IMG/VR virus record: IMGVR_UViG_2563366968_000002
DNA length: 40,086 bases
DNA from: a virus
Taxonomy: Duplodnaviria; Heunggongvirae; Uroviricota; Caudoviricetes
Direction: 5' to 3' (one strand)
Position 1 is the stretch's first letter; every line of letters starts with the position of its first letter. The position numbers were made by a program. Positions 36,001-39,000 of the stretch are shown piece by piece.

Positions 36001-39000
36001 AAGACTTTCCATGTTAAACGTCTACAAATGCAAGGCAACAAACTAGCTGTTCTTTCGGATAACCCCGCCTATGAGAAATGGTACATTGATGAGAAGTCGC
36101 AAGATCAGCTTTATGTTATGGGTAAGGCACTGATTCATGAGTCGATTAAATATAATCGACTTTAATTAGGCATCTAGCAATCGTTAAAGCAAACGAGCAC
36201 AGATGATAAAAGATAAGGATAGAAAATCTTTATACAAATTTTATTTGGCACATTGGTCCATAAAAATGGATTAACACTGAGCTGTTACCCTAAGTAAGAA
36301 AAGATAAAGACCATATGTTATCTTTGGGTGCGTTACTAACACAAAAAAAACCAAAATAAAACATAAATAATAGACAATTCTATACAACAGGATACGATAA
36401 TGATTAATGAACGTACTGAAGCGACAGATGGGGTAGCAGATATGATTTCCACCAATACAAAATATTTAGTATGGAACAACAAAGGTGGTGTAGGAAAAAC
36501 TTTTCTTACATATAATCTTGCCGTTGAGTTTGCTATATCTCATCCGGATCAAGATGTTGTGGTTATTGACTCATGCCCTCAATCAAACGTTTCAGAAATT
36601 ATTCTTGGTGGCAATGGTACCGGGGAAGAAAATCTAAATAAATTGCGAGACAGAAATGTTACAATCGCAGGTTATATCAAGGAGCGTTTTAGCAAATCTC
36701 CTTTGTCTCGTTTAGGAAATGAATCTTCTTACTTTGTACGAGCCCATGATGTTAATGCAAAAATGCCAGAGAACTTATATATTCTTCCTGGTGATGTCGA
36801 TCTTGATATCTGTTCACGCTTAATATCTCACATTGGCTCATCCCCAGTAAAAGAAGCATGGAAGAAAAGCCGATCTTTGCTGGTAGATCTAATAGCATCT
36901 TTTGAAGCCGATAAAAACATTTCTGACAGAGCAAAAACATTTTTTATTGATTGTAATCCAAGTTTTGCCAGCTACACAGAATTGGGAGTAGTCGCGGCAA
37001 ATAGAATAATTATCCCTTGCACTGCCGATGCTGCATCAATTCGCGGAATAAAAAACCTTGTTAAACTTATTTATGGAGTGTCTATTGACAAGTCAGAACA
37101 AGATGAAATGTTCTTAGATTTCAACAAAGAAGCAAAGCAAAACCTTATCGAACTACCTGAACTACACCTTTTCGTACAAAACCGCTCAAGAACTAATGAA
37201 AGTGATGCAGCAAAAGCATTCAAATCACATGCAGAAGAGATCAAAAGAATCACGGATGACCTGTTAAATACACATCCTCATCTGTTCACAAATGTGGCTA
37301 CTTTCGAGAGAGTTCAAAATGTCAAAGATGGTAATACTCTTGCAGCAATAATAAACCATGAGGGATGCCCTTTAAGTAGGCTGCAGCATAAGAGTTACAC
37401 TATCTATGGTATGGCGACCCAAGCTAATAGAGCACAAATTGAAGCACTAGAATCTGATGTTTCAACAGTAGTCAAGTGTCTGTAATACAATAACCATGAT
37501 TTAGAACGAACATAATTCTCGCCCGACCAACCGGTCGGGTTTTATACTCGTAGCCTGCTTAATAACACTGTTCCTGACCCGTTGTATCCATAGTTCCCAC
37601 TATTTTCCCCCAAATTATTACTATCTAATTAACCTAATAATTAAACCAAAACAAAAGACACTCGATATTTTCTATACGTAACTACGCCACATCACCCCAT
37701 CTGTGAAAAACCTTTTAATTCATAACGTTATATAGAAAACTAAAAATTAAATACACACTTCTACTTTTTGTTGTTGATTTTTGCTACTTTTAGTAGCATC
37801 ATTATCTGAACAAACAACAGACTGTTGTTAACGAAAGGTTGGTTGTAACACGGCGTATGGCACATGCGTCGTTAGCGGTCTGGGGACGTTAAAGGGGACA
37901 ATCCACTCCTTGCTCGGGCAAACAAACCAGGTAGCCGGAATGTGCAAGTCAATGAGGATGCTGATAAGACGCCTAACCAGCGTGGCGATTCGGTTTGACG
38001 CCTGGGAAGAGACCAGGGTGCAACGATGAGGGCATTTATGGAACCGCGACAAAGTGTGGTGCCGTAACTGGCTAAGTGCTCTCAGCGTTGTGGTGAATGC
38101 GCAGGCTGATGCGCGAAAGACATTGCAGCTATTGCGGAAAAGAGCTGTTCGGCGGGGCAATTAAACGCCCGTGAGAGTCTGAAATAACCGCAAGCCGGAG
38201 ATCAGCACCGGCACCACAACAGCCACTGCTTTGGCGGTACCAGTTTGTACACTTACTTCCGGCTGGTACCGCTCTTTTTACAAAACAGAGAAGAGCATCA
38301 CCGGACGACGGGCTCATAACCCAATCCATCCGGGCGGCTGCCACCGCAGGTGTTCTTCTCTGTTTTGTGGAGAAACTAACCGACCTTGCAGGGTCGATAT
38401 GATGAGGAGCAGCAAAATGGCTAGCGAACGCAGTACTGATGTGCAGGCATTTATCGGGGAGCTGGACGGCGGCGTATTTGAAACCAAAATCGGCGCAGTT
38501 CTCAGTGAAGTCGCTTCCGGTGTGATGAACACGAAAACCAAAGGTAAGGTCTCACTCAACCTGGAAATCGAACCATTTGATGAGAACCGTGTGAAAATCA
38601 AACACAAACTCTCATATGTTCGCCCGACTAACCGCGGGAAAATTTCCGAAGAAGACACCACCGAAACGCCGATGTATGTCAATCGCGGTGGTCGCCTGAC
38701 TATTCTGCAGGAAGACCAGGGACAATTACTGACTCTTGCCGGTGAACCTGACGGAAAACTACGCGCAGCAGGTCATTAATATCGTTCTTAATTAACTGAT
38801 TATTTATCTCATCACTGAATATCTTTATATAGTGAGGACTTATTATGTCTCAGAACTTAGACGCAACCGCAATTAATCAAATCCATGCCCTTATTTCTGC
38901 TCAGGGTGTTAATGAAATTATCAGTAAGATTGGTGCCGATGCTGTGGCATTGCCTGAGAATTTCCGCATTCATGATCTGGAAAAATTTAATTTAAATCGC

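Follow-up and report, generated by a model that had tools for sequence, protein, structure and literature searches.

A probable compound non-coding RNA locus between pL and yfdP in a lambdoid prophage of Escherichia coli

The window analyzed in this work is the whole DNA stretch of 40,086 nt in IMG/VR record IMGVR_UViG_2563366968_000002 (Caudoviricetes), an Escherichia coli lambdoid prophage of the SfV/mEp460/cdtI type, and the element in question is the leader between its OL/pL region and the early-left gene yfdP. The leader is probably a compound non-coding RNA locus behind pL, in which a structured RNA (M1), a spacer, a tRNA-like RNA (M2, contained in the published small RNA sRNA-17) and a terminator are followed by a three-way junction (M3b) on the mRNA. 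The structures of M1, M2, the terminator and M3b are far beyond chance: in dozens of diverged homologues, compensatory changes have preserved each of them. An earlier reading of this DNA, made from the sequence alone (hereafter the sequence-only reading), had described an untranslated leader with a terminator and an inverted repeat that could act in antitermination, in attenuation or as a regulatory hairpin. Two discrete RNA genes, M1 and M2, were found in place of a mere untranslated leader. The features of the leader are as follows.

About 37851-38017, + strand: M1 core, structured RNA of about 170 nt (alignment and compensatory changes)
37851-37871: P1 hairpin of M1
37930-37948: invariant junction of M1, GGUAGCCGGAAUGUGCAAG
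38001-38017: P5 hairpin of M1, with the conserved loop GAAGAGA
38018-38086, + strand: spacer ('punctuation'), ..GUGCAAC, hairpin, AGC
38028-38035 with 38076-38083: putative spacer hairpin, GAGGGCAU with GUGCUCUC and a variable loop (pairing read from the sequences)
38087-38220, + strand: M2, tRNA-like cloverleaf of 134 nt (minimum free energy fold and covariance model)
38087-38278, + strand: sRNA-17, consisting of M2, spacer and terminator hairpin (rapid amplification of cDNA ends (RACE) and Northern blotting in E. coli K1 RS218; PMC7719688)
38233-38279, + strand: intrinsic terminator, with a 13-bp stem (38233-38245 with 38261-38273), a 15-nt loop and CUUUUU at 38274-38279
38280-38368, + strand: M3b, three-way junction of 89 nt (fold and covariation)
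38369-38416, + strand: yfdP 5' untranslated region proper, with the conserved GGAGAAACUAAC, a small hairpin (38381-38396) and the Shine-Dalgarno sequence GAGGAG

Results

M1 is a conserved structured RNA

To describe M1, 41 non-redundant copies were aligned and a structure of five helices was derived by hand. Besides the P1 and P5 hairpins, it includes helix P2 (GC..UCUGG with CCAGG..GC), which encloses a variable hairpin, and hairpin P4, the loop of which (CACC or AACC) pairs with a downstream GGUG or GGUU to form a pseudoknot (AACC/GGUU in the window). Over the 29 pairs of the structure, 95.5% of the alignment cells were paired, compared with 26-51% when the partners were slid, and compensatory changes were seen at 13 pairs (90 cells), a level reached by 0 of 500 shuffles. 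Two U-G pairs were near-invariant (41/41 and 40/41 sequences); because they would be C-A mismatches on the opposite strand, M1 was assigned to the + strand. The 19-mer GGUAGCCGGAAUGUGCAAG occurred exactly at no fewer than 120 loci in IMG/VR, and 27 matches to it were detected in species-representative genomes, mostly from genera of the Enterobacteriaceae. The search of 37400-38600 against Rfam at E<=10 gave no match for M1, which is an undescribed, ornate RNA without an Rfam family.

Two further pairings were considered for M1. The closing stem GUUGUA with UGCAAC was present in a lambdoid subset only and was left out of the structure. RNAalifold proposed an alternative pairing of GCACAU with AUGUGC, to which the local P1 hairpin was preferred for its covariation; both sides of the alternative are invariant, so that covariation cannot judge it.

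M2 is a tRNA-like scaffold with a hypervariable arm and corresponds to sRNA-17

The minimum free energy fold of M2 in the window is a cloverleaf. Its closing stem has 8-9 bp (GUUGUGGUG with CACCACAAC). Next comes a D-like hairpin (GCGC-AGGCUGAU-GCGC), then a long third arm that is variable and is closed by UUGCGG pairing with CCGCAA, and finally a T-like hairpin of 5 bp (GCCGG-AGAUCAGCA-CCGGC), which abuts the closing stem. Among the matches listed for an exact pattern of the 5' end in IMG/VR, at least 73 distinct versions of 64-230 nt were present. Their ends were near-invariant (5' UGUGGUG-AAU-GCGC-AGGCUGAU-GCGC and GCCGG-AGAUCAGCA-CCGGC-CACCACA 3'), and their centres of 12-180 nt were unalignable between versions. 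The unconstrained fold held all three scaffold helices in 54 of the 73 variants. A covariance model (R1) detected exactly one copy in the window, with a score of 98.6 bits, and on the model matches 98.5% of the scaffold cells were paired (28-63% with slid partners), with compensatory changes at 11 of 16 pairs. The T-like loop was AGAUCAGCA or a variant of it, with CAG[CU] kept in 69 of 72 copies. Complementarity between GCUG(AU) of the D-like loop and (AU)CAGC of the T-like loop was found in almost all copies, and one clear compensatory case was seen (ACUGA with UCAGU in locus L203); a loop-loop pairing is therefore a possibility suggested by the sequences.

The third arm carries recognizable contents in a few versions. 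In three related ones (loci L078, L088 and L099; L078:4597-4660), the arm aligned to nt 243-282 of E. coli 16S rRNA with 32 of 40 positions identical and with differences that preserve the helix; its score was 45-50, compared with at most 27 in shuffles (z of 13-19). In another copy (L127:1799-1965), the arm nests a tRNA-like body with a D-arm (AGCUCAAUCGGUAGAGCU) and a T-arm (CUGGUUCGAUUCCAG). The arm of the window's own M2 showed no match to the E. coli rrnH operon. Whether the scaffold displays mimics of host RNAs is a matter of speculation.

The region is transcribed in a near-identical prophage. A 193-nt RNA, sRNA-17, was demonstrated by 5'/3' RACE and Northern blotting in the mEp460-like prophage of E. 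coli K1 RS218, with its 5' end at GUUGUGGUG and its 3' end within the U-tract of the terminator (PMC7719688). The 5' end coincides exactly with the first nucleotide of the acceptor-like stem of M2. The window was matched to sRNA-17 through the supplementary alignment of that paper (GTTGTGGTGAATGCGCAGGC to ...CTGGTACCGCTCTTTT), and over the approximately 96 nt compared, the alignment rows differed from window 38087-38278 by one single-nucleotide polymorphism and one 1-nt indel; the window copy is 1 nt shorter, with CCGGCACC in place of CCGGTCACC. The location also agrees, as the window copy lies in an mEp460-like prophage, in an intergenic position and upstream of yfdP. PasB was considered as a possible synonym of sRNA-17 and was rejected, since it lies among structural genes (Storz lab preprint).

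In the original report, sRNA-17 was described as an isolated, trans-acting sRNA with its own promoter, regulated by ArcA (Sun et al. 2020, Front Microbiol 11:574833; PMC7719688); the repression by ArcA was reported in strain RS218 only. The paper concerns the same locus and essentially the same sequence as window 38087-38278, and is silent on the tRNA-like fold, the family with its hypervariable arm, the upstream M1 and the link to tRNA genes.

M1 and M2 are probably exchangeable cassettes and accompany tRNA genes

The leader is mosaic, with breaks at the cassette boundaries. The segment 37839-38014 matched phage P1, where it immediately follows trnI and precedes ban (at the end of the ban leader), and Uetakeviruses, where it lies directly 5' of tRNA-Arg. 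The segment 38075-38221 matched the P1-like phage RCS47 after tRNA-Thr, and its two ends alone matched T1-like phages, Ackermannviridae and other phages, 180-290 nt upstream of tRNA-Met. In the spacer, the consensus of the predicted hairpin is GAGRGCAU with GUGCUCUC, followed by the junction AGCGUU, at which the next RNA begins. The sequence AGUGCUCUnnCCGUU stands directly 5' of M2, of other cassette types and, in other phages, of true tRNA-Arg, and the junction AGUGCUCU..CCGUU is common to all cassette types after M1.

Among 114 distinct M1 contexts, the next RNA stands at a fixed distance and was tRNA-Arg in 23, M2 in 19, a cassette named type B in 22, types C/D in 4 and another sequence in 46. 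A tRNA-Met(CAT) ends right before M1 in 15 of the 114, as in P1, and M3b follows M1 within 700 nt in 32, which constitute the lambdoid context. Type B is a 137-nt RNA (GUGGUAAUCCGCGAAAUGGCGCGG...CCCACCACAAC) that fills the slot of M2 in loci L139, L174, L222 and about 20 other lambdoid contigs; the same terminator and M3b come after it, as if one cassette had replaced another at conserved junctions. At every locus examined, the copy of M1 or M2 shared its strand with all tRNAs that ARAGORN called at a distance of up to 2.5 kb. Virulent phages hold self-contained units of promoter, M2 or M1, tRNA and terminator; for example, a T1-like phage has a unit of TTGACA-17-TAGATT, M2, tRNA-Met and terminator on the strand opposite to the structural genes. 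Because virulent phages and P1 have M1 and M2 next to tRNA genes, far from any pL, control of the lambdoid early-left operon is unlikely to be their primary role.

In P1, an M2-type RNA is located at L003:1308-1405 (P1 69819-69916), about 300 nt beyond tRNA-Thr, within the ban operon controlled by C1 and antisense to the junction of the annotated plp/upl open reading frames (ORFs). The P1 copy of M1, between trnI and ban, falls in a gap without annotation.

The coincidence of mosaic break points with cassette boundaries, together with the ends of M2, which are partly inverted repeats (TGTGGTG...GCTGAT and ATCAGC...CACCACA), could also be explained at the level of DNA, with M2 as a mobile or recombination cassette (like miniature inverted-repeat or palindrome-associated transposable elements, or the 'boundary sequences' of mosaic genomes) and the hairpins as DNA sites. 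This explanation is very improbable. The RNA exists in cells and ends at structural boundaries (PMC7719688), compensatory changes occur inside each local hairpin, the G-U pairs are strand-specific, tRNA genes and terminators always have the same orientation relative to the element, and no transposase is linked. Cassette exchange by recombination at shared boundaries is compatible with RNA genes and need not be a rival to them.

A conserved terminator separates M2 from M3b

The terminator noticed in the sequence-only reading was recovered at 38233-38279, with a folding energy of -21.2 kcal/mol (z = -4.7). It had escaped a simple terminator scan because the loop limit of the scan was 8 nt. A G+C-rich hairpin followed by a U-tract is present on the transcribed strand, as in intrinsic terminators. 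Together with M3b, it was aligned in 34 non-redundant homologues from phages of E. coli, Shigella, Klebsiella and Salmonella, in which 6 of the 10 stem pairs tested showed compensatory changes and the U-tract was near-invariant. The stem sequence changes entirely between homologues (GGCGGUACCAG, GGCGGCAUC, GGCGGCCCGG, etc.), yet the pairing stays. The 3' RACE end of sRNA-17 lies in this U-tract (PMC7719688). In Uetakevirus, the same type of terminator follows M1-tRNA-Arg, without M3b.

When sRNA-17 was replaced by a resistance cassette, yfdP transcripts rose by log2 6.6 (approximately 95-fold), and yfdR was also up (PMC7719688). We read the rise of yfdP as a cis effect, due either to the missing terminator or to transcription that enters from the cassette, and not as trans regulation; such an effect is not discussed in the original paper. 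The phenotype fits a terminator that gates early-left expression.

M3b is a three-way junction at the head of the early-left mRNA

The inverted repeat of the sequence-only reading is the 20-bp closing stem of M3b. Its arms (38280-38304 and 38344-38368) are 25 nt long and 84% complementary, and the perfect 15 bp described before (38280-38294 with 38354-38368) were verified; the repeat stops 49 nt short of the yfdP start codon, an ATG at 38417 and not 38418. In the interior are the hairpin CCGGA..(GGG-CUCAUAA-CCC)..UCCGG and a variable hairpin GCGG..CCGC. The folding energy was -45.5 kcal/mol (z = -7.3). In the same 34 homologues, 94% of the cells were paired (37-49% when slid), with compensatory changes at 15 pairs (83 cells), five of which belong to the closing stem; the loops CGAC, CUCAUAA and AAUCCA of the inner hairpin are invariant, and conserved G-U pairs would be C-A mismatches if read on the opposite strand. 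The eleventh pair of the closing stem (38291 with 38357) is G-C in the window and a C-C mismatch in 26 of the 34 homologues, so the perfect 15-bp repeat of the window is atypical.

The core pattern of M3b was found at 120 loci or more in IMG/VR. The order was always terminator hairpin, U-tract and M3b, with a spacing of 0 nt in nearly all copies. M3b precedes yfdP homologues in most phages, xisE in e14 and other genes in deletion variants, which indicates that it is tied to the head of the operon and not to one gene. The proposed regulatory hairpin has proved to be a conserved part of a larger structure, which may have a regulatory function.

Antitermination and attenuation are less probable roles of the leader

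The N-less leader might act by antitermination of the put kind, in which nascent M1 or M3b binds RNA polymerase, causes read-through of terminators and replaces N. In HK022, putL and putR (about 70 nt, two stem-loops) follow both pL and pR (PMC9378689), and the likeness is that of a cis-encoded structured RNA downstream of pL in a lambdoid phage without N. Consistent with this, the region lacks an N-like gene, M1 is located near the promoter and precedes a strong terminator, M3b is conserved where the early-left operon begins in many lambdoid phages without N (SfV and e14 among them), and the invariant unpaired nucleotides of M1 and M3b suggest a specific partner. On the other hand, the leader RNAs are larger than put and occur also in non-lambdoid phages. 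Comparison with the nun-putL-cI region of HK022 gave only chance matches of 10-15 nt (E>=0.7). M1, M2 and M3b are single-copy in the 40-kb window, with no twin on the pR side; M1 precedes tRNA genes in virulent phages and in P1 follows trnI at the end of the ban leader; M3b stands after the terminator and not before it; and the terminator forms the 3' end of sRNA-17 in vivo (PMC7719688). This role is thus considered unlikely.

A conditional attenuator or riboswitch, in which M1, or the inner hairpins of M3b, sense a ligand, a protein or a tRNA and gate the terminator or the M3b stem, and hence yfdP, is less probable still. The pseudoknot and invariant junctions of M1 are riboswitch-like, and the 3' strand of M3b in the window is U-rich (CUCUGUUUUGU), so that a shortened stem plus this U-tract could terminate transcription. 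However, a complete RNA gene of 134 nt lies between M1 and the terminator, and no upstream or conserved segment was found that could compete with the pairing of the terminator stem. In other phages, M1 is directly followed by tRNA genes or ban. The U-run of M3b is GUGUUGUGU in relatives, indicating that termination at M3b is not conserved, and the variety of the genes downstream (yfdP, xisE and others) argues against a gene-specific sensor. From the suggestion of antitermination or attenuation, the conserved terminator and a deletion phenotype that fits gating have stood; similarity to put, a pR-side twin and a competing segment were not found.

The leader lacks a credible protein-coding gene

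The interval from pL to yfdP is approximately 630 nt long and contains no credible ORF for about 430 nt, nor within 37800-38416, which agrees with the sequence-only reading. Between the end of the upstream ParA-like gene (37485) and yfdP, the only ORFs were of 39, 26, 36 and 25 aa on the + strand and of 110 and 71 aa on the - strand, and none of them had a Pfam match. The Prokaryotic Genome Annotation Pipeline (PGAP) annotates nothing at the leader in the identical E. coli strain 582. No Arg-rich, N-like ORF was found near pL in the window, as the earlier reading had said, and no N-like gene is annotated across the whole early-left operon of an intact relative. A boxA-like sequence (CGCUCUUUUUA, 38270-38280) is the tail of the terminator and is CGCCCUUUUUA in most relatives; no lambda-type boxA-boxB site was recognized, and no systematic search for boxB was made.

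It is hardly to be expected that the region encodes an overlooked small protein, for instance an N analogue whose start is unusual. Small ORFs are present (e.g., MRRLMRERHCSYCGKELFGGAIKRP at 38097-38174), and the annotators of mEp460 called two ORFs on the - strand over the leader. Nevertheless, apart from the Pfam and PGAP results, the ORF that opens with a conserved ATG within M2 has anything from 6 to more than 41 codons depending on the variant, the 110-aa ORF begins within the hypervariable arm, neither the indels nor the hypervariable arm come in multiples of three, and the substitution pattern is that of paired RNA. These mEp460 ORFs (mEp460_036 and mEp460_037, over M1, M2 and the terminator) are probably not protein genes. 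In K-12 prophage e14, ymfH (L226:2363-2674), just upstream of xisE, covers a type C cassette, the conserved terminator and M3b, and is probably not a protein gene either. A literature search returned nothing relevant on ymfH or on the exact core strings of M1, M2 and M3b.

Genomic setting and the OL/pL region

The chromosome of E. coli strain 582 was 100% identical to the window over the kilobase tested. The layout of the immunity region is the mirror image of that of lambda, and the features around the leader are as follows.

35091-35354, - strand: cro-like gene
35404-36165, + strand: cI-like repressor gene
36400-37485, + strand: ParA/AAA_31 ATPase gene of low GC content, between cI and OL/pL in the position of lambda rexAB
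37521-37540: terminator of the ParA-like gene, followed by an AT-rich stretch specific to the immunity type
37757-37808, + strand: OL/pL region, with the palindrome GCTACTTTTAGTAGC (37783-37797), a related half-site CTACTTTTTGT (37761-37771) and a direct repeat, D2
From 38417: downstream genes yfdP (ATG at 38417), yfdQ (DUF2303) and the start of yfdR

The palindrome GCTACTTTTAGTAGC recurs in the cI-cro gap at 35386-35400 with 2-3 mismatches, and a further similar site is present there at about 35409-35423; in all, 4 matches of this type were found against 0.55 expected. The presence of the same operator type in the cI-cro gap supports the OL/pL assignment, and it is reasonable to regard 37783-37797 as a putative OL with pL alongside. 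By our reading, TTGTTG (37771-37776), a gap of 17 nt and TAGCAT (37794-37799) form the candidate pL promoter. Homology to phages of other immunity types begins only at 37829, just past the immunity-specific part. Identity to mEp460, which the sRNA-17 paper names as reference phage for the RS218 prophage, was 98.7% over 37829-38420, and in that phage just 135 nt separate the repressor stop from the start of the M1 homology.

The ParA/AAA_31 gene may be an accessory or exclusion gene expressed in lysogens. At the far end of the window (39850-40086), an IS1 element (N- and C-terminal domains of InsA; Pfam 1.5e-20) breaks off the reading frame about 17 codons into yfdR and extends past the window end, so that the early-left operon of the window copy is broken; in the strain 582 prophage, which has an identical leader, yfdR is annotated as intact. 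On the - strand at 33933-34121, within a 382-aa ORF (33333-34481), Rfam detected C4 antisense RNA (78.8 bits) and isrK (58.7 bits). This locus is an antirepressor control module of the immI type of P1/P7 (c4-ant), and PGAP names Rha-family genes there in the identical strain.

Comparison with known RNAs

Rfam searches at the gathering score over the whole window and at E<=10 over 37400-38600 detected nothing in the leader, and a search of 14 related loci gave no family for M1, M2, the type B and C cassettes or M3b. M2 resembles a tRNA in its four-arm cloverleaf, in the stacking of an acceptor-like stem on a 5-bp T-like hairpin, and in occupying the same slot with the same junction motif, co-transcribed and co-oriented. 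It differs in lacking the T-loop UUCRANY, the D-loop GG and a recognizable 7-nt anticodon loop, in its third arm of 12-180 nt, and in having a 3' trailer with a terminator in place of CCA. ARAGORN and Rfam RF00005 called no tRNA in the leader; the only tRNAs of the window were three at 25780-26029. Stable tRNA-like RNAs have precedents in phage tRNA clusters, for example the species 1 and 2 RNAs of T4.

M2 also resembles STnc100 (RF02076), with which it shares a closing stem, (U)GGUGAAU, a 5' hairpin, a variable middle, a 5-bp 3' hairpin abutting the stem and a terminator. A preprint from 2026 describes a common scaffold for the prophage sRNAs STnc100 and PasD, with seed regions that differ (bioRxiv 10.64898/2026.05.13.724894). 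The weaker matches of the M2 model were different RNAs with the same boundaries (AGUGCUCU..CCGUU and GUGG....CCACAAC). Type C, which occupies the M2 position in SfV and in K-12 prophage e14, has ends in common with M2, and shares with STnc100 an identical CACCGGGAGGCACCCGGCA hairpin and the motif UGGUGAAU. By architecture and this chain of similarity, M2, type C and STnc100 look like members of one superfamily. The models themselves do not cross over: the STnc100 model gave no match in 37400-38600 even at E<=10 (gathering threshold 47 bits) and none at the gathering score to SfV, e14 or the type B/C cassettes, and the M2 model did not match STnc100. The positions differ as well, STnc100 being in the late leader and M2 being pL-proximal.

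In the late region of the window, a cluster at 25440-26029 contains tRNA-Met(CAT), tRNA-Arg(TCG), tRNA-Arg(TCT) and STnc100 (131.7 bits), all encoded on the - strand, with AsxR on the + strand. The last tRNA-Arg is immediately followed by STnc100, an adjacency like that of M1 and M2 elsewhere.

As a complex conserved phage RNA beside tRNA genes, M1 is comparable to GOLLD, ROOL and the theta ribozymes; it is about 170 nt long, and the theta ribozymes, which are similar to those of hepatitis delta virus, are about 55 nt (PMC10879173). The Rfam models of the GOLLD, ROOL and theta-ribozyme families gave no match. Among large ornate RNAs, GOLLD is about 800 nt and ROOL about 580 nt.

Discussion

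In the working model, transcription would begin just upstream of 37829, judging from position and operator at the repressor-controlled pL, and would yield a primary transcript of about 470 nt that ends at the terminator and contains two RNA cassettes, M1 and M2, with the conserved spacer hairpin between them. M2 with the terminator hairpin would accumulate as the 193-nt sRNA-17, the 5' end of which would arise by processing at the spacer, in the manner of a pre-tRNA, and not from a separate promoter. The third arm is the variable and probably the functional part of M2. The terminator would both make the 3' end of sRNA-17 and stop most polymerases, insulating yfdP-yfdQ-yfdR, and in transcripts that read through it, M3b would form a structured element in the 5' part of the early-left mRNA. 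In view of the 20-bp stem, the most likely role of M3b is that of an RNase III-type site for processing or stability, which would part the upstream RNAs from the mRNA. After induction, the terminator might be passed by partial read-through at high pL activity, by a factor acting on M3b or by an RNA-based mechanism.

Several points weigh against this model. The accumulation of M1 as an RNA and the cleavages at the spacer and at M3b are steps that we infer. A scan for consensus promoters called no pL. The SfV homologue of the cassette follows another gene at a distance of over 650 nt downstream from pL, and the unit may therefore have a promoter of its own. The authors of the sRNA-17 study placed an ArcA-bound promoter in the 300 bp upstream, that is, inside M1; their 5' RACE is blind to the difference between primary and processed ends; and sRNA-17 was visible in uninduced lysogens, which is unexpected for a tightly repressed pL (PMC7719688). 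The derepression of yfdP possibly came from the promoter of the resistance cassette used in the deletion. Finally, all covariation counts come from sequences that are related, and the alignment behind those of M2 was model-fitted.

A wider joint reading is put forward tentatively, as possible and not as probable. According to it, enterobacterial phages (lambdoid, P1-like, Uetakevirus, T1-like and Ackermannviridae) would share a modular array of RNA cassettes, in which tRNAs, M2 cloverleaves, STnc100-like RNAs and M1 are swapped at common junctions. The hypervariable arm of M2 would present decoys or mimics of host RNAs, of which the 16S helix mimic and the tRNA-like body are the payloads observed, and M1 would be a ribozyme or the RNA part of a ribonucleoprotein that processes or escorts the neighbouring cassette.

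sRNA-17 itself was already known (PMC7719688). What is new is its family of tRNA-like scaffolds, the kinship with the STnc100 type, M1, M3b and the cassette junctions shared with tRNA genes. Parts of the leader kilobase are present in 3025 of 5426 complete E. coli genomes, and the annotation of this very common prophage region, which is now blank or filled with probably spurious ORFs (ymfH, mEp460_036/037), should change. A published virulence-associated sRNA is now placed in a large structural family, and its strongest RNA-level deletion phenotype, the rise of yfdP, suggests a cis effect of the terminator. M1 and M3b add two conserved structured RNAs without an Rfam family. The findings also raise the question of how polymerase passes the terminator in N-less phages of the SfV/mEp460/e14 type. 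Finally, in phage families that are unrelated, tRNA genes are accompanied by tRNA-like RNAs with a hypervariable arm, for which roles in counter-defence or in host RNA metabolism are conceivable; if the joint reading were true, the arms of M2 would blunt RNA-targeting host defences or retune host machinery.

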